A DNA stretch of 64,000 nucleotides from Escherichia phage W70, in sequence record OP778610. The stretch is one strand, 5' to 3'. This document shows positions 2,216 through 22,624 of this stretch, piece by piece. A model generated the notes under the pieces. That model was not told the DNA's origin. It saw only the letters and a program-made list of their open reading frames with translations, and searched no databases. The translations under genes and the position numbers were made by a program. Position 1 is the stretch's first letter. The number at the start of each line of letters is the position of its first letter.

Positions 2216-3391
2216 TCAAAACGGAATATCGTCGTCAAAATCCATATCATCTACAGACATATTTACATGTCCTTCAATATCAGGGGTAGGTGAATCTTCT
2301 GCTGACGGAGTTAACTGCGGTTCCGGCTCAGGTTTCTTTTCCTCTTGCTTAGGAGTTGAAGCACCGTTACGGATCTTATCTTCCAATTGACAGATGAATC
2401 GGAAATTCTCTTCAGTCTTAGCAATAAAGGTTTCGATATTGTCACGACCCCAACGGGCAGAAAGAATGCCACACTGGCCTAAACGAGCACCGAAAGAGTA
2501 ATCATCCATAGATTTAAACTCTTCACGCAGTTTTGCTTTGATCGAATCCATCGCTGCAAGAACTTGTTCTACGATCACACCCTGATTTGCAATAGTTTCA
2601 TCAGGGAACATTGCATCGGTAATAGATAGTGCATTACCTAAACGAATAGGTAGATCATCTTTACCTTTACCTGAACGTGATCCTGTTCCAGTACTTGCAC
2701 CTTTTGGACCGTAAGCTTTAAAGCCTGTAACCGTACCATCATCTGAACGAACACCTGCAATACGACCACCTTCTGTAATCTGACCCGTCTGTTCATCAGT
2801 GAGGTTTACAGTAACTTCTGTGCCGTCTTCCAGCTTAACAACTACCTTATTGCCTTCGATAGATGTGATATCACCATAAATCTTCTTAGCTGCACCACCA
2901 GACGGCTTTTGCTGCTGTTGGGAACCACTTGATTGCTGCTGTTGCTGACGAGGCTCACGAGCACCGGATGCGTCAGTAATCTTGATACGTGCTTTCTTAC
3001 CTTCTGTAGAAGAACCTTGACTACCATCTTGTTTGGTATAGGTCTTGATAACAACAGGTAAACGAATTTTCATACCCTCTTTAAGATCGGTGTAACCACC
3101 TTCAGGATTTTTAATCTGGAACTGATTCTCATACTTCAGATTTTTAACTTCACCCTCACCAAAAGAAATCCATGCTTGATCTTCACCTTCTTTAAGAAGA
3201 ACCGCATAGCGGTGGGTATTGTTAATGCTTTTCTGCTGACCAGTATTCTTGTCTTTGAAGGTAGTCACTCGTGGGCTACCATCTTCATTAATACGTTTGA
3301 TCATGATACGTTCAATCGTACCTGCTGCAATGTTTACTGTGGTATCGGAAACAGCATCGTATACAGCATTGATAACTTTAACTTCAGACAT
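2216..3391 (-). CDS. single-stranded DNA-binding protein candidate with host-SSB-type C-terminal tip
   Basis: C-terminus DDMDFDDDIPF matches the bacterial SSB tail; Gln/Gly-rich linker (QQQQQSSGSQQQQ); sits in replication array. Confidence 0.55.
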   Translation of the reverse strand: MSEVKVINAVYDAVSDTTVNIAAGTIERIMIKRINEDGSPRVTTFKDKNTGQQKSINNTHRYAVLLKEGEDQAWISFGEGEVKNLKYENQFQIKNPEGGYTDLKEGMKIRLPVVIKTYTKQDGSQGSSTEGKKARIKITDASGAREPRQQQQQSSGSQQQQKPSGGAAKKIYGDITSIEGNKVVVKLEDGTEVTVNLTDEQTGQITEGGRIAGVRSDDGTVTGFKAYGPKGASTGTGSRSGKGKDDLPIRLGNALSITDAMFPDETIANQGVIVEQVLAAMDSIKAKLREEFKSMDDYSFGARLGQCGILSARWGRDNIETFIAKTEENFRFICQLEDKIRNGASTPKQEEKKPEPEPQLTPSAEDSPTPDIEGHVNMSVDDMDFDDDIPF

Positions 3392-8606: not shown

Positions 8607-8984
8607 CTATACTCCAAATGTGGATTTGATTTCAGCAATAACCTCATGCACATTGTTTTCGTTTACTTCAAATGTGTAGGACGTTGGTTTAAGGAACGTC
8701 TGAGGTGAAACATTAACAAAGAATTCAAATTCATCATTAAAAATTTCAAAGTATTTTCCAGGTGTTGATTCTTGGCTTTTGAAAACAGTACCATCTTCCA
8801 TAGTAACAGAAGAAACAGATTTTTCACCAAGGGTGTATGTTTTTAGCTCGTCAACAACGAAACTGGGGCCGTGGCGACGGAGTATTTCAACCATAGTTCG
8901 GTTAGCTCCACAAATACCAGTACGATTAATAAATAACTCTTCACACCGAGGATTGAGAATATAAGTTTTTCCTACTTGCATCAT
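8607..8984 (-). CDS. small-protein family member 1 of 3 (tandem)
   Basis: Starts M-QVGKTY-LNP, HGP-F-V core; similar to the two adjacent genes. Confidence 0.55.
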   Translation of the reverse strand: MMQVGKTYILNPRCEELFINRTGICGANRTMVEILRRHGPSFVVDELKTYTLGEKSVSSVTMEDGTVFKSQESTPGKYFEIFNDEFEFFVNVSPQTFLKPTSYTFEVNENNVHEVIAEIKSTFGV

Positions 8985-8994
8985 TACAATCTCC

Positions 8995-9354
8995 TTATGC
9001 TAAGTTAAATGTGGATTTGATCAGGTCAATAACCTCTTGTGCGTTGCTCTCCGACACAGATACCTGAATAATTTTAAGGTCGCTGACCTCTTCAAAGTAT
9101 TCGAACTCAGATTCACGAAGTTCAAAGTACATTGCCCCACAGCCCACACTGAATGAATCACACCCTACAGCACCATCTTCTGTTGTGATGTTATTAACAT
9201 ACTCATCACCTTCGATCATGCTCATGTTGTTAACAATAAATCGTGGCCCGTGCTCATCCAGAAAAGAAACAATCTCGTGATTGTAACTTGGGTCAGCCTG
9301 AATAAATTCTTCTACGAGTTTTGGATTAAGTTTATAAGTTTTTCCGACTTCCAT
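8995..9354 (-). CDS. small-protein family member 2 of 3
   Basis: MEVGKTYKLNP...HGPRFIVNN...LIKSTFNLA. Confidence 0.55.
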   Translation of the reverse strand: MEVGKTYKLNPKLVEEFIQADPSYNHEIVSFLDEHGPRFIVNNMSMIEGDEYVNNITTEDGAVGCDSFSVGCGAMYFELRESEFEYFEEVSDLKIIQVSVSESNAQEVIDLIKSTFNLA

Positions 9355-9365
9355 CTTTGTTCTCC

Positions 9366-9740
9366 TTACGCCAGGTTAAAGGTAGCTTTAATCAAATCTA
9401 AAGTTTCTTGTGCATTACTACGAGAGACGGCAACCTGAATAATAACAGGGTCTTCATCTTCCCCGACTTCTTTGAAGAAGGGAAATTCACTCTCTGCAAG
9501 TTCAAAGTATACACACTTGTTACCTTCGCAGTCGTGAAAAACGTCACTACCTAAAGTACCATCTTCAAATATGACATTGTTAACATATGCAACATTATCA
9601 TAGAAGTGGGTGGTGTTGACAACAAATTTAGGACCGTGCTTATAAATAAGGTCAACCAATTCTTGATTGTAGCTAGGGTCCATATTGATAAAAGCTTTTT
9701 CTAAGTCTTTATTAAGAATGTAAGTTTTTCCGATTTCCAT
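9366..9740 (-). CDS. small-protein family member 3 of 3
   Basis: Internal start MEIGKTYILNK with GAGGAG RBS; ends LIKATFNLA. Confidence 0.55.
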   Translation of the reverse strand: MEIGKTYILNKDLEKAFINMDPSYNQELVDLIYKHGPKFVVNTTHFYDNVAYVNNVIFEDGTLGSDVFHDCEGNKCVYFELAESEFPFFKEVGEDEDPVIIQVAVSRSNAQETLDLIKATFNLA

Positions 9741-9807
9741 CTTTGCTCTCCTCTTCAGTTGATGGATACATCTTAGTTGATATAGACATGTCTTGTCAAT
9801 AACTTTT

Positions 9808-9843
9808 TGCACATAAAAGAAAACCACCCTTCGGGGTGGTTTA
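9808..9843 (-). terminator. intrinsic terminator
   Basis: Minus-strand stem aaaccacccc-gaag-ggtggttt then T-run, downstream of polymerase exon 2. Confidence 0.6.
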
Positions 9844-9848
9844 AATTA

Positions 9849-10148
9849 CTAGTGGCACGCCCCCCAGTTCATCCCTGTGAGGTATTCACCTGTTATGTGG
9901 ACAGGAGATTTCATCATTCGTGCTGCTTGCTCTACACAACGAACAACCATCTCTCCAACTGGACAATACATGATCGTGTAGATTCCATTCTCATCAGGAT
10001 CACACTTAAACTTCCCTTCTTTCACACAATGACCATCCAAGATCATTTTCTTAGCCAAGCAAGCTTCTACAAATTTCTTCGCGTCAGCTTCGTTGTCAAA
10101 GGTCCAGGTCTTCTTGAACTTGTGCGGTACTTCAAGCTGGTATTCATC
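9849..10148 (-). CDS. DNA polymerase (family A), exon 2
   Basis: DEYQLEV completes motif C when joined to exon 1 (YYH|DE); C-terminus NWGACH like Pol I/T7 ...H terminus. Confidence 0.65.
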   Translation of the reverse strand, partial: DEYQLEVPHKFKKTWTFDNEADAKKFVEACLAKKMILDGHCVKEGKFKCDPDENGIYTIMYCPVGEMVVRCVEQAARMMKSPVHITGEYLTGMNWGACH

Positions 10149-10920
10149 CAAAAGTTTAACGAGGTCGTTACTCTCGCCCACATCATTACATGTTGCCATA
10201 CGTTTTCACATATGGATCGGACTATATCACCATCCTTTTCAGGATGCTCCCCATTTCGACGGCACTTGCTCGCCTACGCCTCTCGGCTAGTCTCTGAACG
10301 TTAGGACCATGTGTAGTCACAAGAGATGTGTGTCCAGTTTTTACGGATTTTTATGGACCTTACCACGTTGTAAGGATAACCCATATCCCGAATCTGTGCA
10401 CTTCCATAACCTTGCCCCAGGAAGTTGCAAATCTCTCTAACCTCTTCTTCGGTAACTATACTTCTGGCGTTATCAACCCCTGTTGCTGAACGACATTTAT
10501 CAGCAAAGGTTTTCTTGATATTTCCACCACGAGTTGTCCATTGGAGGTTTGAATAGTGGTTATTCCTTTTGTCAGGCCACTTATGATCAACCTCCGGCAA
10601 ACCTTCAGGGTTTGGTACAAAACACTCTGCCACCAAAACGTGAACAGCCTTTGTAGTCGTCCTTTTGTTGAGATACAGACTTACAATAAGATACCCACGT
10701 CCATTATCAACTGCCGCCATTGGTTTCCCTCGACGACCTATAATGGTCCCGTCTTCATAAACCTTGTAACCGAAATAATCTTTATATTCCACATGATCCT
10801 CTTCGCTGCTGATTAACATAGTCTCATACTAACTCACACTTGAATTAATATCAACCTTAGTCTTCCAGCAATTAAAGGAGTTTTCGATGTGAGTTACCTC
10901 ACAAAGCCACAATGTTACTT
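10149..10920 (-). mobile_element. group I intron in DNA polymerase gene, HNH-ORF-containing
   Basis: In-frame stop right after exon 1; core elements GACTAGCCGAGAGGCGTAG and GATATAGTCC on minus strand; ends in G before exon 2. Confidence 0.65.
10301..10819 (-). CDS. HNH homing endonuclease (intron-encoded)
   Basis: LPEVDHKWPDKRNNHYSNLQWTT HNH-type motif; lies inside intron. Confidence 0.7.
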   Translation of the reverse strand: MLISSEEDHVEYKDYFGYKVYEDGTIIGRRGKPMAAVDNGRGYLIVSLYLNKRTTTKAVHVLVAECFVPNPEGLPEVDHKWPDKRNNHYSNLQWTTRGGNIKKTFADKCRSATGVDNARSIVTEEEVREICNFLGQGYGSAQIRDMGYPYNVVRSIKIRKNWTHISCDYTWS

Positions 10921-13251
10921 ATGGTAATAGATAATACGTCTAACGCCTTCATCATACCAACCTTTCTTAACCAACTGCCAGTGCAGGAGGATACCCACCA
11001 AGTCAAACAGTGCAGCACCACCATTCTGCTGATAAGCATTAAGCAATGAGTGTTTGGAACGAGTGTAGATCTTACGTCCATCAAGACCGTAGATGAATCG
11101 CTTACCGTTAGCTTCCCAAAACTTCTCTAGTGCTTCTTTACGACCTTTCAAGCCGATGTTGCTATCCCAGAATGCGTCGATTACTGCCTGGGCCTTCTCA
11201 AGAGTGATCCCCAGCATTGATGCAATCTTCGCTGCCTGTGCCCCGTACATAATTCCGTATGTCACACCTTTACCTTCACCACGAGAAACCTTCTTCCCTG
11301 CCGCTTTGGTATACGCTTCTGCGTTTCGGGAGTGAGCATCTCCAGATTCCATGATACGAAGATAAGCACCGCCATCGAAATCATAAGCGCCCCATGCTGC
11401 GATCATACCTTCTAGGTTTGAACCGTCGATACCTACCTGATATTTACCCTCAGAGGCTCTGAATAGTTCACGCATCTCTTTACCGAGAAGAACTTTCTCA
11501 TCCGGCTTAGGTACGTTTGCTACGATCGTATGCTTACGACGACCTGTGTTAGTTATTCCACTATAACGGGCCGGAAGTTTACCGTCAACTCGTAGACGTG
11601 GATGGTTAAGCCATCCGGTATCAACCTTCTCTTCTTTCAGCGGGTCAAGAACAGATCGTCGGTTACGTAAAGACAGCCATTTAACAATCTGTTTAGCCAT
11701 TTCACCATCTACTCGCTCAAGGTTAGGGCAAAGACCCTGTTGATCCTTAAGTTGTGGAGATGTAGGTAATGCACGAGCTTTCTTACGGAAAAACTTGAAC
11801 ATCTTTTCTTTATCTGACCACTGCTTAGGTGTGATCGCCAAGCTTTTCAGAATCAGATCACGATACTCCGTCTGATCCAAATCTTCAATGTATTGACGAA
11901 CAATCAGATCAACTTCACTATCGGGACGTTGTTTCTTGAACTGATCTTTAGTTGCATCCTTTGTACGCCAAATTGTTGGGACCCATCCTGCATCACGGAT
12001 CAGGAACTTCTTAACGTCGTCCTGGTTACCAATACGCATCGGAATCATAATGTCCGGCATCTTTTGTTCTTTGATATCCATCAAAGCACGAGCCATATCT
12101 TCCGGCGGCAAAGGAACAAGCCCTTGCTGCTTAACGTTTTGTGCACGGATAAAATCACCCATTTTGGATTCGTCCTCTACACCGTGTTCAACACAATACT
12201 TGATCGCGGCAGCAGTAAGAGATCCGTCAGCCTTAAACGGCTTACTTGGTGCACCTTTAAATTCCAAGGCTTCCCAATTGATATTATAACCTAACTTCTC
12301 TAACCATTTCCAACCTGTACCGGAAAGAGATCCATCACCCTTGAAAGGTTTGGATGGGAATGTCGGTTGTGCTGATTTCGACATCTCTTTCTTCGGCAAC
12401 TTAGGTTCAACCTCTAACTCAATGTCAGTCATCATCTTATCGATACGATCACGAAGCTTGAGTGCTTTTTCTTCATCAAATGAAACACCCTGAATTTCTT
12501 GCTCAATCATCAGGTAGTCAGTCAACATACCTCGACGCAGGGCATTCTTCCAGTTGATCATTTTATACTTCTTCTGATCTTTGTCTGTTTCATCCTTAAA
12601 CATGAAGCGTTTATCATCCGGCATGGATTCACAGGAGATCTCTTTCATCAGAGCATCCCACACCATTTCGTTGATAATTACGTCTTCAATAATACGATCG
12701 CAATACTTCCAAAGTGGAAGGCCACGCCAATCTTCAATCGCCACTTTCTGGTTAGCTACTCGCATACCCCAAGCTTCAAGCCCGTGTGGCCCTACAGGCT
12801 TCATTTTACCTGTGACGGGGTTCTTTACCATCTCAGGACAACCGCGAGGCAGAGGGCGATCTGGATACAATGTACGGGACATTGAAAGTGTATCGAAGAT
12901 GGTTACTTGTTTACCATTGATCGTCCCCATGCAACCAGGGTCTGCAAACATATCGTAAGTTGTTCCTAGCATCTTCTTAAACAACTGGAGGTCATAGCCG
13001 AAGATGTTGTGGATAGCAACTGCTTTAGGCTCGGTAACGAACCATTCGTTTAATTCTTCAAGGGTGCGGATCTTGAAGTTTTTACCTTTAGATTGGATAA
13101 ATTTAACAGCTTGATCGTAACCTTCTCGCTGTGGATCAAGAAAGATGTTCCAGTTATCTTTTTTGTACTCTTTAAACAAGATGCAGTGGATTAGATCAAC
13201 TTCTGTCAACAGACCATTAGCTTCCGCATCTCCAATAAATAAGCCTTTCAT
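10921..13251 (-). CDS. DNA polymerase (family A), exon 1
   Basis: N-terminal FIGDAEANG 3'-5' exo motif; KKVSRGEGKGVTYGIMYGAQAAKIA resembles motif B; ORF stops one codon after ...YYH. Confidence 0.75.
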
Positions 13252-19449: not shown

Positions 19450-19971
19450 TCAGAAAGGTGCTTCGTCGTCGAAATCTACATCTTCAACTTCCGGTACATC
19501 AGGAATGTCACCTGCGGATTCAACGATACTCTGTTGTTCCCACGTAGGTTCCTCTGAAGGTTGGTCCATTTCTTCCATAACCTTCTTGATCTCTTCCTCT
19601 TGCTCACGCAGGAAGTTATCATCCGGCTCAGGAATATCTTCCTCTTTAATATCTGAACGAGTGAGATCACTGTTTTGTTCAGACAGAGGTTGAATCTCTG
19701 CTGCTTTAGGCTTAAAGTCTGGAGAACGATGATCATCTTCTGGATGAGCGGCATACCACTCACGAAGAGTTTCATAAGGACTCTCTAAGAAGCCCTCTGG
19801 CGGTTCCAGATAATCACCCGTATCAATGTCATAGAACACAGGGAATTTACCAGCACGACCGTGTTTACGGTCATCCAGAATAACAAAGTAAGAAGTGTTA
19901 CGTTGTTTCATCGGGAGTTCTGGATCTTTGTTACGTTCAATTCCCCACATATAGTAAGTATTCTTTATGTC
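19450..19971 (-). CDS. primase-helicase (T7 gp4-like), exon 3 with acidic C-terminal tail
   Basis: GIERNKDPE...VILDDRKHGRAGKFPVFYDIDTGDYLEP parallels T7 gp4 C-terminal region; ends DVDFDDEAPF. Confidence 0.6.
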   Translation of the reverse strand, partial: DIKNTYYMWGIERNKDPELPMKQRNTSYFVILDDRKHGRAGKFPVFYDIDTGDYLEPPEGFLESPYETLREWYAAHPEDDHRSPDFKPKAAEIQPLSEQNSDLTRSDIKEEDIPEPDDNFLREQEEEIKKVMEEMDQPSEEPTWEQQSIVESAGDIPDVPEVEDVDFDDEAPF

Positions 19972-20808
19972 CAGGCTACTCGCTAGGTAGCCTCGGTGTG
20001 CTAAGACACCCGCCCATACTTTCATACAGGAACAGACTATATCATCACCTTTCGGTGCTCTCCACTTCGGAACCGCTTGGTCCCTACGCCTTTCGGCTAG
20101 TCGTTGAAGATTTTGCATATTCAGGATACATGGTCCAAGTATACAGATTGGCAATTTCTTTCCAATCCCTTTTGCTTCGGATGTTTAGAACAACCGCCCT
20201 TTTAACTTGAATGCCACTACTTTCGGCTATTCTCTTTGCAGTCCATCCCTCTGAAAGTAACTGGCATATCTTATGCACGTCGTTTTCAGAAAGTCCGGTA
20301 CTGTAATGATCTTGCCCTCTAATTGGTAATTTGTTTTCTATCGAGTGTCGAAGATTTTCCTCTTCTGTTACCCACTCAAGGTTATCTTTATGATTGTTCA
20401 ACTTATTACCGTCTTTATGATTTACCTCTGGTAAATTTAAAGGGTTTGGTATATAAGCCTTCGCGACCATCCTGTGAACATACTCAGGCTTCCGCTTACC
20501 ATTTAAGATAACATTAACAACAAAATACCCTGTACCCTTACTTAATGAATTTTTAAGGAATCTTCCTGAAAATTCACTAAAAACTTGTCCATCTTCAGTG
20601 ATAAAGTATGGACTGTTTTCTTCTATTCTTACCATAAGTCCCCTCTTTCATGGGACCAAGATCTAGAATATGCAACTTTCCTGCTGATTACCCAATCCTG
20701 TACCTTTTTAAACATTCACGCTTGCCTTTGCAGACTACGTTGTAGTGTTACAGGCTCTAAGGGCTTCCCAGCAATTCAAAGAGTTTTAGATGCGCTCTAC
20801 TGCTGTTA
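19972..20808 (-). mobile_element. group I intron in primase-helicase gene, HNH-ORF-containing
   Basis: Stop directly after exon 2; core GACTAGCCGAAAGGCGTAG and GATATAGTCTG; 3' boundary approximate. Confidence 0.6.
20084..20635 (-). CDS. HNH homing endonuclease (intron-encoded)
   Basis: LPEVNHKDGNKLNNHKDNLEWVT HNH-type motif. Confidence 0.7.
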   Translation of the reverse strand: MVRIEENSPYFITEDGQVFSEFSGRFLKNSLSKGTGYFVVNVILNGKRKPEYVHRMVAKAYIPNPLNLPEVNHKDGNKLNNHKDNLEWVTEEENLRHSIENKLPIRGQDHYSTGLSENDVHKICQLLSEGWTAKRIAESSGIQVKRAVVLNIRSKRDWKEIANLYTWTMYPEYAKSSTTSRKA

Positions 20809-21399
20809 ACGCATCATTGCACGGCTACCAGCAAACTGCGCTGACTGGACTTGACCACCAAATTCATGAGGCTTGCCAGATTCAGGCTTATTAAGGTGAC
20901 AGAAGCAATAATAAGTAAAGCCAAGCTCTTTTGCCAGTTTGGAGATCTCATCCGAGAATCGTTCCAGTTCCTGGTTAGCTTCAGAAGCACTCATACCTTG
21001 CACAAGACGAGTGATCGGGTCAATAAAGATATCTTCACAACCTTCTACGATCACTGCGTGACGGATAGCACCTTTCAGTTCATCCCATACTGCACGACCA
21101 TAGTTGTTATAATAGATAACACTATCACCAACTTCATCAGTAGCTTTGATCAGTTCTTCTTGCTTAAAGTATCCACGTTGACCTTCAAAAACTTCATTGC
21201 CCCAAATGTCACGGTAAGTTCCATCTTCTTGAGGAATCATTACCTTTTCGGCATTAACAAAGTCTTTATGATAACGCTTACCTGCGATCTTCTTACAAGT
21301 GATCTCGTTCTCTTCTTCAAACTTAAACACCGCAGCTTTTGACTTTTCAATACCCGTGATGTGTTCAACCATTTGGTTAAGAAGTTCAGACTTGCCCAT
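20809..21399 (-). CDS. primase-helicase, exon 2 (helicase core)
   Basis: Starts MGKS (Walker A remainder); IFIDPITRL Walker B-like; FCHLNK and QFAGSRAMM helicase motifs. Confidence 0.65.
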
Positions 21400-21688
21400 T
21401 TTCACCGTTATGTTCGACAGGGTTCGCTACTCCCTGCCCGTTCTCTTACGAACTGCTACATGTCCCCATGCAGACCAGACTATATCTTCAACCTGTTTCC
21501 AGGTGCTATGCACTTCGGACCGCTTGGCCCTACTCTACTCGATTCAAGAGTCTAGCTCTTGTCTTTCGATAGTCGTTGCTCCTTCCTTTTTCAAGGCTTG
21601 GATCAGGATTACGTGTTCTACGCTTCCCCTGAGTTCACATAGTATTTAGTCGAGGCATCTCTGCCAAGGCTGGCTAGACTTAATGTTT
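21400..21688 (-). mobile_element. group I intron in primase-helicase gene, ORF-less
   Basis: About 290 nt between exon 1 ...IGAG and exon 2 MGKS...; core GCTAGACTC and GAAGATATAGTCTGG; no ORF. Confidence 0.6.
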
Positions 21689-22624
21689 ACCAGCACCGAT
21701 GAAGTAACCTTCACCTGGACGACGACCCAAGGTAAGCTTGGTCATGGTGGGCCAAGGGAACTTCTTGCCGAGTTTAGGGATCTCATGTGCCTTTTCGCGG
21801 AACTGTGAATAAGTCGAGAAACCATCAGGCACATATTCTTTTGGCTTCATTGCAGCCCAAAACAACTGATCAGAAAGACCTTTGTTATACATATCGCAAG
21901 GGTCCATATCTTCTGGAATATCCACGACCTTCATTTGTGGAATTACAGAGTATACCGCTGCAACTGCATCTTTACCTTTCATGATCCCTTTGGCCTTCTC
22001 TGCTTCTGTCGCACGGTCAGCATCGAAAGCTACGATAATCTCTTCAAACTTACTCAGAAGCTTATAGTTATTCTTCTGTGATAAGTTTTGCACGGCATTG
22101 GATGTACCGTTAGAGATAGATACAACTGTGAAGTTTGGTTTACGAGTGGAACCATCCTTCGGTTTGTACTTCTCTGTCAATACCTGCCACAAGATTGCAG
22201 CATCGTATTCACCTTCAGTGATAAAGATCATACGTTTGGAAGACTTGTTTGCACCTTCCAGACCAAACATATCACAGGCTACAGATTGGAAACCGATAGT
22301 TGTAAAGTGCCCTTTCTGTTGCTTAGGGATCGTAAGATCACGCTTTTTAAAACCTACAACCTTACCTTCCAATGTGTACGGAAAATAATGTGCTTCTGGA
22401 GTCATACCGTCTTTAGCTGACAACTTGGTACGAATACCAAATCGTTTAGCTGTCTTTTCGTCGATACCACGCTCAGGGATACTTTTACACGGGTAAGTCA
22501 ATACATCTTCAACTGTTTCTTCCACACGAGACACACCGCCGCCATAATTACGTGCCACCGAAGCTTTAGGGTTTTTATGTCCAAACTTATAACCGCCAAA
22601 CAAACTTTCGCCAATAGTGCTCAT
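21689..22624 (-). CDS. primase-helicase, exon 1 (TOPRIM primase domain)
   Basis: TOPRIM motifs ITEGEYDA and FDADRA; ends GEGYFIGAG (start of Walker A). Confidence 0.7.

Follow-up and report, generated by a model that had tools for sequence, protein, structure and literature searches.

Polymerase gene and exons

The window, which is the whole 64,000-nucleotide stretch of Escherichia phage W70 that was analysed (OP778610), is 99.9% identical to Escherichia phage A73 (Vequintavirinae), and its copy of the locus is called A73 in the comparisons below. According to the list of open reading frames (ORFs), every element of its polA gene lies on the minus strand, with two exons separated by an insert and a terminator-like hairpin directly behind the stop codon (a slash marks the splice junction throughout):

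10921–13251, minus strand: PolA exon 1, codons 1–777, ending ...RRIIYYH with CAT at 10923–10921 (ORF list, Pfam, T7 gp5 alignment, UPEC06 boundary)
10149–10920, minus strand: group I (IA2-like) intron, 772 nt, 5'-AAGUAAC... to ...AAACUUUUG-3', terminal G at 10149 (UPEC06 indel, Rfam, covariation, fold)
9849–10148, minus strand: PolA exon 2, DEYQLEV...NWGACH and stop codon TAG at 9851–9849 (ORF list, UPEC06 allele, joined coding sequence, T7 alignment)
9815–9841, minus strand: terminator-like hairpin AACCACCC-CGAA-GGGUGGUU and U-run, directly 3' of the PolA stop codon (sequence)

Exon 1 carries an Exo I-like motif, motif A and motif B, and exon 2 is the source of the catalytic Asp-Glu of motif C and of the C-terminus. 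The ORF list gives a frame of 778 aa at 10915–13251 that terminates in ...GVRRIIYYHK before its stop codon, as described in the original prediction, which had it end just past ...GVRRIIYYH, and a second frame at 9849–10199 that includes DEYQLEV...NWGACH. The joined coding sequence of 2631 nt is in frame and encodes exactly the 876 aa predicted for it, of which 870 match the polymerase of the related phage UPEC06; its predicted spliced junction reads ...TATTACCAT/GATGAATAC..., with the predicted junction peptide ...IIYYHDEYQLEVPHK.

The host gene is a family A DNA polymerase with motifs A, B and C, the HDE of motif C being restored when the exons are joined. Exon 1 alone scores 42.8 bits against Pfam DNA_pol_A and reaches profile position 279, and the joined protein scores 45.7 bits (cut-off 34.3) over profile positions 113–345. 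The comparison with T7 gp5 that had been proposed as a check covers residues 403–658 and runs across the junction (rriiyyhdeyql opposite ymawvhdeiqv) through T7 H653-D654-E655. The motif B-like segment anticipated from the sequence, KGVTYGIMYG, aligns clearly to T7; the anticipated N-terminal 3'-5' exonuclease motif is visible (FIGDAEAN opposite T7 IVSDIEAN) but not significant alone. Weak matches to RyhB, RNAI, Gut-1 and SNORD82 at 9815–9924 are due to the terminator hairpin or to chance.

Intron boundaries and splice sites

The limits of the insert are given by a natural intron-less allele. UPEC06 encodes an unbroken 876-aa polymerase reading ...YYH/DEYQLEV, the very junction that had been predicted, and blastn against this allele returns a single insert of exactly 772 nt at 10149–10920, in precise agreement with the limits first proposed. 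The boundary is fixed and cannot slide, because the flanking bases differ; the motif C codons for His and Asp lie directly on either side of the insertion point. The last base of exon 1 is T (10921) and the last base of the insert is G (10149), both as foreseen. Chance does not account for this layout. Two features lie at the 5' splice site:

10907–10924, minus strand: P1, exon CCAU (10924–10921) and intron AA (10920–10919) paired with the guide UUGUGG (10912–10907) (Rfam alignment)
10915–10917, minus strand: UAA stop codon in frame within the P1 loop, two codons into the intron (sequence)

P1 contains a U.G wobble (U10921) at the splice site, and a P10 helix is possible between CAUU (10914–10911) and GAUG of exon 2 (10148–10145); the wobble, the terminal G and P10 are invariant in 14 of 14 orthologues, and AA(A/G)TAA is conserved in all of them. 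The splice-site context TAC CAT/GAT GA is kept in all nine intron-plus alleles compared, and ACCAT/GATGA in all 14 orthologues; of the eight intron-less alleles, six show synonymous variation at -1, -4 or +3. The UPEC06 allele reads TAC TAT CAT/GAT here, the Mydo type TAC TAC CAT/GAT and the CR3 type CAC/GAT. The 3' splice site placed by Rfam at 10197, inside P9, would add 16 residues (ATCNDVGESNDLVKLL) between the motif C His and Asp. It was rejected and 10149 accepted because the intron-less allele and the covariation of P9, P9.1 and P9.2 place the site there, 48 nt beyond the Rfam end and past the hairpins P9.1 and P9.2.

Ribozyme structure

At the Rfam gathering threshold no intron is detected at this locus, and a permissive scan is needed. 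The covariance-model scan put forward in the original prediction then returned a full-length match to Intron_gpI (RF00028; E 1e-6 over the whole window), though this copy, at 39.7 bits, does not reach the cut-off of 50 and the model places its 3' end at 10197. The low score likely reflects the 497-nt ORF insert in P6 together with the extra 3' hairpins or misplaced 3' end. Same-site orthologues pass the threshold (JEP1 73.7, VLCpiM5b 69.8, CR9 56.7 and PVP-SE1 54.4 bits), and ORF-less orthologues at the same site score 70–74 bits. Minimum free energy and centroid folds recover P1, P2, P4, P5a, P6a, P7.1, P7.2, P8, P9, P9.1 and P9.2, with z = -5.5. The elements of the 3' half are as follows:

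10220–10292, minus strand: catalytic core 3' half, with the P7 5' strand GACUA at 10292–10288 (hand-corrected from the sequence) and the P7 3' strand UAGUC at 10224–10220
10278–10287, minus strand: P7.1, core 3' half
10258–10274, minus strand: P7.2, core 3' half
10247–10252, minus strand: P3 3' strand GGGGAG, core 3' half
10231–10246, minus strand: P8, core 3' half
10158–10215, minus strand: P9 (10215–10196), P9.1 (10193–10180) and P9.2 (10178–10158), between the Rfam model end and the true 3' splice site (fold, covariation)

Covariation was assessed on 14 distinct orthologues. Alignments of the whole or ORF-trimmed intron made with MAFFT were dropped, as P3, P4 and P7 were misaligned in divergent members and homopolymer linkers slid, and the final core alignment has its variable loops swapped for fixed non-repetitive linkers. 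In this alignment 96.1% of cells are paired against 34–41% in slid controls, a figure biased somewhat towards the tested structure, the alignment having been hand-trimmed with fixed linkers and the structure taken from the A73 row. Compensatory changes occur in 37 of the 61 pairs, and none of 500 shuffles matches the observed cells paired, compensatory pairs or covariation score. The core helices P3–P8, including the P3/P7 pseudoknot, are supported by covariation (pairs with compensatory change: P3 5/6, P7 2/5, P7.2 4/6, P8 5/6), and P7.2, P9.1 and P9.2 covary. The group I nature of the insert, as originally claimed, is supported jointly by covariance model, thermodynamic fold and covariation. 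It is IA2-like, a subgroup assigned by structural features, namely P7.1 and P7.2 between P7 and the P3 3' strand and the peripheral P9.1 and P9.2. The primase/helicase gene holds another two group I introns, and the core strings that they were said to have in common with the polA intron are found in all three.

These data bear on whether the gene is expressed as one polypeptide or as two. In a reading that has no splicing, the 778-aa product and a 116-aa product starting at ATG 10199 would associate after translation. Such an arrangement exists for NrdA of Aeromonas phage Aeh1, which is split by mobE and whose parts associate post-translationally. An ATG is indeed present at 10199, the GenBank entries of A73 and most relatives list two 'DNA-directed DNA polymerase' coding sequences, and one HNH insert of phage CB7 (CB7_245) is not spliced (PMC7344957). 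A two-part polymerase, however, would have its motif C cut between His and Asp, and 17 unrelated residues would precede the catalytic Asp-Glu. The RNA of these 17 codons makes up the P9–P9.2 hairpins, and its variation follows base pairing (covariation) and not a protein sequence; in addition, the full group I core is conserved, and the orthologous CB7 intron splices (PMC7344957). Expression as two associating polypeptides is accordingly regarded as highly improbable, and the spliced reading is retained.

Comparison with known introns

The closest experimental precedent is the CB7 intron with its HNH gene CB7_50, located between CB7_51 and CB7_49, the splicing of which was demonstrated by RT-PCR and Sanger sequencing (Buttimer 2020, PMC7344957). 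The CB7/phiTE intron belongs to the same subfamily as that of A73, occupies the identical site IIYYH/DEYQLEV and is 92.9–94.8% identical in its ribozyme parts. The CB7 intron differs from that of A73 in its length of 687 nt, in its HNH ORF, which is unrelated and encodes only 127 aa, and in an enlarged P5 region; CB7 also has a second PolA intron upstream, which A73 lacks.

In E. coli Pol I, site 881 is presumably this same His/Asp junction (Klenow motif C His881-Asp882-Glu883). The introns of phages PhiI and W31, which infect enterobacteria, were reportedly described by Bonocora and Shub in 2004 as subgroup IA2 with an HNH ORF in P6a. Their likeness to the A73 intron is one of reported site and description, and these phages belong to the Autographiviridae whereas A73 is a myovirus of the Vequintavirinae. 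Both PhiI and W31 are T7-like phages whose intron is reported at site 881 of Pol I, numbered as in E. coli (PMC3428280). SPO1, SP82, Bastille and Pf-WMP3 resemble A73 in carrying group I introns with modular HNH endonucleases (the nicking enzymes I-HmuI, I-HmuII, I-BasI and I-PfoP3I) in family A polymerase genes, but their introns interrupt the fingers subdomain, at Pol I site 674 and not at 881 in motif C (PMC3428280). Protein identity is only 23%, and I-HmuI, the sole solved structure to match the A73 HNH product, does so by fold over 166 of 172 residues. The IA2 introns of T4 nrdB and td share with A73 the P7.1 and P7.2 elements and an ORF in a peripheral loop, and differ in host gene, endonuclease family (GIY-YIG) and peripheral elements. 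Nucleotides 33–58 of the A73 intron (P3 and the P4 5' strand) have a 26-nt exact match in T4-like phage DNA, which is taken to be the nrdB intron, as the records annotated there name nrdB. The polA intron is not mentioned in the retron, BASEL or rV5 genome papers.

The HNH endonuclease ORF

The HNH ORF that had been noticed within the insert lies in the loop of P6a:

10301–10819, minus strand: I-HmuI-like HNH ORF, 172 aa from ATG 10819, stop codon TAA at 10303–10301 (Pfam, phrog_59, PDB, AF2)
10790–10800, minus strand: P6a 5' strand AGGAUCAUGUG, pairing with CACAUGGUCCU at 10303–10313 and closing a 476-nt ORF loop

HNH_3 scores 23.9 bits, 0.9 under the Pfam cut-off of 24.8, phrog_59 matches with E 1e-33, and the sole PDB sequence match is I-HmuI (1U3E, E 3.5e-5). 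The AF2 model (pLDDT 87.4) has 1u3e_M as its best Foldseek match (E 1.4e-7, 166 columns, TM 0.53), and the order of its secondary structures fits an N-terminal beta domain, an HNH domain and a C-terminal helical DNA-binding domain. Residues H60, H79, N91 and N100 are invariant over 34 homologue clusters; H79, N91 and N100 are invariant in 30 homologues and align with VDHK...N...N of I-HmuI. Judged by its sequence and modelled fold, the intron carries an HNH endonuclease homologue with a putative nicking and homing activity.

The more likely start of the ORF is GTG 10792 (163 aa), which is preceded by GAGGA at 10797–10801; the 34 homologue clusters mostly begin at the GTG position. The 5' strand of P6a probably holds both the Shine-Dalgarno sequence and the start codon of the HNH gene. 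Predicted folds of A73, CR9 and AV124 all contain this 11-bp stem, which shows compensatory changes, and other stems occupy the equivalent position in L041, FV3 and L016.

Distribution and mobility

Among the PolA genes sampled from Vequintavirinae, about one third have an intron at the same site and about two thirds are without it. The same 772-nt insert occurs with at least 99.9% identity in three independently sequenced phages, and diverged copies are present in over 20 phage genomes as well as in metagenomes, where an 18-nt P1 pattern gave 32 matches, most of them chance and only eight of them PolA introns. A premature stop codon is the one feature that would suit a sequencing or assembly error or a polymerase gene that has decayed into a pseudogene; with the same insert in three independent sequences, diverged copies in over 20 phage genomes and in metagenomes, and a viable lytic phage that has PolA as its replicative polymerase, such an origin is barely credible.

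Across phages, the cargo of this ribozyme varies between three HNH types, a LAGLIDADG gene placed in P7.1 and no ORF at all (JEP1, VLCpiM5b, L017, L038, L042 and L049, at the same site). This variable cargo and the patchy distribution fit a mobile element, a reading drawn from the cargo together with the absence of the intron in about two thirds of the relatives sampled. When A73 is compared with A5-4, the intron differs at 1 of 772 nt (0.1%) and the exons at 1.5–5.5%, so that the intron is about 15–50 times less diverged than the exons, and the identical tract reaches 48 nt beyond the intron on the upstream side and 19 nt on the downstream side. Two phages without the intron, UPEC06 and A7_1, are set apart from A73 by a cluster of seven to eight synonymous changes no more than 25 nt from the site. 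In Mydo, the flanks of the intron-less allele are identical to those of intron-plus relatives.

It is conceivable that the intron splices although homing through its HNH gene has ceased, the element being a vertical passenger or moved in trans by other endonucleases; the near-identity of A73, A5-4 and LTH01 would then reflect recent common ancestry or ordinary recombination. The persistence of ORF-less versions at the same site would suit this, and the Mydo flanks are compatible with precise loss and with an uncut target alike. Against it stand the intact HNH ORF with catalytic residues invariant across 30 homologues, the low divergence of the A73/A5-4 intron with its identical tract, and the synonymous clusters of UPEC06 and A7_1 beside the site, and the loss of homing is considered unlikely. 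Taken as a whole, the polymerase gene of this rV5-like coliphage is very probably interrupted in motif C by a mobile group I intron of IA2 type.

Proposed mechanism

Splicing of the A73 copy is expected by analogy with its experimentally spliced orthologue in CB7. After transcription the intron would fold, and the last exon bases CCAU would pair in P1 with the guide GUGG to give the U.G wobble at the splice site. The P3–P9 core would then bind guanosine for attack on the 5' splice site, the 3' splice site would be positioned by P10 together with the terminal G (10149), and exon ligation would yield an mRNA for a single 876-aa polymerase with an unbroken motif C (...YYHDEYQLEV). The UAA two codons inside the intron would halt ribosomes arriving from exon 1. 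In mixed infections, the HNH enzyme may nick intron-less polymerase alleles near the insertion site, as do I-HmuI, I-BasI and I-TslI, and recombinational repair may then copy the intron and short exon flanks into the nicked alleles (homing).

A further speculation, of rather low probability, extends this homing model by analogy. Beyond selfish homing, the HNH enzyme would also act as a weapon between co-infecting rV5-like phages, nicking the essential polymerase gene of intron-less rivals such as UPEC06 and A7_1; the synonymous cluster upstream of the site in these phages would represent evolved target-site immunity and not a co-conversion scar, and the ribosome-binding site and start buried in P6a would couple expression of the enzyme to intron folding. 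Interference between phages has been shown for the intron endonuclease of PhiPA3 (PMC11620839).

Significance

Phage PolA genes with an intron of this type at this position are already on record; the A73 copy is new and unannotated, and it is an ordinary phage mobile element of a well-known kind. Its main value lies in annotation, with the picture of introns and polymerases unchanged. In GenBank, A73, A5-4, LTH01, CR9 and many other Vequintavirinae have the polymerase listed as two unrelated coding sequences and a 'hypothetical protein', and the annotated exon 2 coding sequence begins 17 codons early, within the intron, the right product being a single 876-aa enzyme. At the His/Asp junction of PolA motif C, these phages offer a natural series in which one ribozyme is combined with three HNH types, LAGLIDADG or no ORF, alongside intron-less alleles, and this series is suited to studying the invasion of introns by homing endonuclease genes, co-conversion tracts and possible phage-phage interference.

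Polymerase gene and limits of the insert

The window shares 99.9% identity with Escherichia phage A73 (OP778609), a 142-kb myovirus of the Vequintavirinae whose name is also used here for the window's own intron copy. Its polymerase region contains three reading frames, the insertion site being marked ^ in junction sequences:

10915-13251, minus strand: 778-aa ORF, ending ...GVRRIIYYHK before the stop codon
10301-10819, minus strand: 172-aa HNH ORF with an HNH_3 match
9849-10199, minus strand: ORF with DEYQLEV...NWGACH

UPEC06, a relative with about 95% identity to the window in the polymerase region, has a single unbroken 876-aa polymerase gene, and when aligned with the window it falls into two collinear blocks, parted by one 772-nt insert in the window at 10149-10920, exactly the limits of the original prediction. 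Because the flanking bases differ, this boundary is fixed and cannot slide. Exon 1 ends in ...TAT TAC CAT (T at 10921), the insert runs from AAGTAAC to ...AAACTTTTG (G at 10149), and exon 2 begins GAT GAA TAC, so that the terminal T of the exon and terminal G of the intervening sequence are both as foreseen. Joining 10921 to 10148 preserves the frame and yields the anticipated YYH^DEYQLEV junction and 876-aa length, with 870 residues the same as in the UPEC06 polymerase. The proposed family A identity is borne out by Pfam DNA_pol_A (45.7 bits, cut-off 34.3), whose match reaches profile position 345 in the joined protein versus 279 in exon 1 alone, and by T7 gp5, the best solved relative (E 4e-15), whose alignment crosses the junction unbroken (rriiyyhdeyql versus ymawvhdeiqv, T7 H653-D654-E655). 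Within motif C, the insert therefore falls between the codon for His and those for the catalytic Asp-Glu pair. The motif B-like segment is likewise present (KGVTYGIMYG versus T7 KTFIYGFLYG), as is the claimed exonuclease motif, an Exo I-like FIGDAEAN near the N-terminus that resembles T7 IVSDIEAN in an alignment that is not significant alone.

In GenBank, the A73 polymerase appears as two separate 'DNA-directed DNA polymerase' CDSs on either side of a 'hypothetical protein', and the record shows no intron. The limits of A73_98 and A73_100 (OP778609) are annotation artefacts at 10149-10199 and 10915-10920 (minus strand): the exon-2 CDS begins at an ATG inside P9 and so gains 17 spurious residues (MATCNDVGESNDLVKLL), and the exon-1 CDS one spurious Lys. 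The same pattern recurs in CR9, A5-4, LTH01 and others, and some records, such as AV124, already label the intron ORF '# Phage intron'.

Directly after the polymerase stop codon lies a terminator-like hairpin (9815-9841, minus strand; AACCACCC-CGAA-GGGTGGTT and a T-run), which explains weak Rfam matches to RyhB, RNAI and Gut-1 as chance. Three tandem paralogous small ORFs follow downstream on the minus strand (9366-9827, 8995-9354, 8607-8984), with M-x-(V/I)-GKTY-x-LN at or near the start and ...IKSTF or ...IKATF at the end; A7_1 and A5-4 have other genes at this position.

Structure and class of the group I intron

At the Rfam gathering threshold the window holds a single intron, at 21456-21721, the polymerase intron scoring below it. 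With E-value thresholds, RF00028 gives a full-length match at 10197-10930 (39.7 bits, E 1e-6 for the whole window; cut-off 50), and same-site orthologues exceed that cut-off: the ORF-less introns of JEP1 (73.7 bits) and VLCpiM5b (69.8 bits), and those of CR9 (56.7 bits) and PVP-SE1 (54.4 bits). In the alignment, UUGUGG pairs in P1 with exon CCAU and intron AA, so that a U.G pair falls precisely on the 5' splice site; next come P2, P3 and P4, then a 497-nt insert within P6, and in the 3' part P7, a 32-nt insertion comprising P7.1 and P7.2, P3', P8 and P7'. The match ends at 10197, still within P9, and the intron itself continues for another 48 nt, through hairpins P9.1 and P9.2, to its true 3' splice site; splicing at 10197 would leave 16 foreign residues between the motif C His and Asp and is excluded by the intron-less allele.

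Covariation was scored on orthologues from GenBank phages, IMG/VR and metagenomes, all inserted at ...(Y/A/E)YH^DE(Y/V/A/I)Q.... The final alignment holds 14 distinct cores with variable loops removed, two caveats being that it was trimmed by hand and that the structure was taken from the A73 row (P1, P2, P3, P4, P6, P7 in a pseudoknot with P3, P7.2, P8, P9, P9.1 and P9.2). Standard pairs occupy 96.1% of 823 cells, compared with 34-41% after the partners are shifted 1-3 columns. Compensatory double changes occur at 37 of the 61 pairs, and none of 500 column shuffles matched the observed pairing or covariation score. Independently of the alignment, thermodynamic folding of the ORF-deleted A73 intron (z = -5.5) recovers P1, P2, P4, P5a, P6a, P7.1, P7.2, P8, P9, P9.1 and P9.2. 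The covariance-model match, covariation and fold together uphold the predicted group I intron.

The architecture is IA2-like, given the P7.1 and P7.2 pair and a 26-nt identity to T4-like DNA at nrdB. This stretch (10863-10888, minus strand; intron nt 33-58), covering J2/3, P3, J3/4 and the 5' strand of P4, matches T4 and many T4-like phages at every base; its counterpart is probably the nrdB intron, since records annotating the position place it in nrdB. Either this part of the IA2 core is conserved in sequence, or the identity dates from an exchange between introns.

At least two further group I introns interrupt the primase/helicase gene (phrog_239; 19453-22624, minus strand):

21683-22624, 20809-21405 and 19453-20154, minus strand: primase/helicase pieces (phrog_239)
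21456-21721, minus strand: intron without ORF (Rfam 70.4 bits)
about 20013-20806, minus strand: intron with HNH ORF 20087-20635 (Rfam 24.7 bits, E 0.006)

The HNH-bearing one has core strings in common with the polymerase intron, in keeping with the shared elements first noticed, and the two HNH proteins are paralogous (32% identity, E 2e-29).

The intron HNH gene and its expression

The HNH ORF reported within the intron is confirmed by HNH_3 and by PHROG HNH families (phrog_59, E 1e-33). The only solved structure matching its product by sequence is I-HmuI (1U3E, E 3.5e-5), the nicking HNH endonuclease from the SPO1 polymerase intron. An AlphaFold model (30 homologues, pLDDT 87) has 1u3e_M as first structure match (E 1.4e-7) over 166 aligned columns, so the entire three-part architecture is common to both proteins. 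H60, H79, N91 and N100 are unchanged among HNH homologues.

Most homologues start at the position of the A73 GTG at 10792, just behind GAGGA (10797-10801); the longer ORF merely adds an N-terminal MLISSEEDH, which is what the conserved ribozyme strands P5', P4' and P6 give when translated. An 11-bp helix, P6a (10790-10800 with 10303-10313), closes the ORF loop. One of its strands includes the probable start codon and ribosome-binding site of the HNH ORF, the other the final codons and the stop. Compensatory changes preserve P6a in CR9 and AV124, and introns with other ORFs have other stems instead. Folding of the intron may thus restrict endonuclease translation. An in-frame UAA (10915-10917), kept in all orthologues, halts exon-1 ribosomes ahead of the core.

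Distribution and mobility

Klenow motif C is His881-Asp882-Glu883, and site 881 of the T7-like phages PhiI and W31 is taken here to correspond to the His^Asp junction that the A73 intron interrupts. Group I introns of these phages lie at Pol I site 881, E. coli numbering, whereas those of SPO1, SP82, Bastille and Pf-WMP3, which carry I-HmuI-type nickases, occupy a different position in the gene from the A73 intron, namely site 674 (PMC3428280). The intron that carries HNH gene CB7_50 in Pectobacterium phage CB7, between CB7_51 and CB7_49, is an orthologue of the A73 intron: it shares the insertion site, and its ribozyme parts are 92.9% identical. Its splicing was demonstrated by Buttimer et al. 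(2020, PMC7344957) with RT-PCR and Sanger sequencing. Further upstream, the CB7 polymerase gene contains another group I intron (2446-3116 of its sequence L007; Rfam 47 bits).

At this site a single ribozyme carries varied cargo: the A73 HNH type in A73, CR9, SSE121, AV124 and L041, a second in FV3, rV5-like phages and Av-05, a third in CB7 and phiTE, a LAGLIDADG gene in PVP-SE1, placed in P7.1 rather than P6a, and no ORF in JEP1, VLCpiM5b, KP12 and several metagenome contigs. Of 201 Vequintavirinae-type PolA matches sampled at even spacing, about one third have the intron, as judged by a match ending at the insertion site, and about two thirds read through. A73 and A5-4 differ at 1 of the 772 intron positions, against 1.5-5.5% divergence in exon windows, and their identical tract reaches beyond the intron by 48 nt on the upstream side and 19 nt on the downstream side. 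Relative to A73, the intron-less phages UPEC06 and A7_1 show a cluster of 7-8 synonymous changes within 25 nt on the upstream side of the site. The junction reads TAC CAT^GAT GA in all nine intron-plus alleles compared, and of eight intron-less alleles, six carry a synonymous difference at -1 (CAC), -4 (TAT) or +3 (GAC), positions paired in P1 and P10.

An rV5-like polymerase with the same intron also occurs in MG065635-MG065690 ('Campylobacter phage' C7, C9, A112b, A147 and others), genomes of about 128-143 kb labelled as Campylobacter jejuni phages. Their sequences are almost the same as those of Escherichia Vequintavirus phages, and the stated host is probably mistaken.

In four metagenome or IMG/VR contigs (L017, L035, L042 and L049), small introns of 264-345 nt that lack an ORF and share the internal guide sequence interrupt far more divergent PolA genes at the His^Asp junction (...MIEYH^DEVQL and ...LIAYH^DEAQLE), so the site is in use well beyond the Vequintavirinae. 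Every detail of the original reading of the polymerase interruption is upheld. The intron is unannotated in A73 and of low novelty, since its lineage and class have been described. Judged from sequence, the insert is a genuine mobile group I intron, and its HNH gene encodes a predicted I-HmuI-like endonuclease. The intron's variable cargo, patchy distribution and low divergence, and the clustered changes next to its site, form the pattern that homing with short co-conversion tracts would produce.
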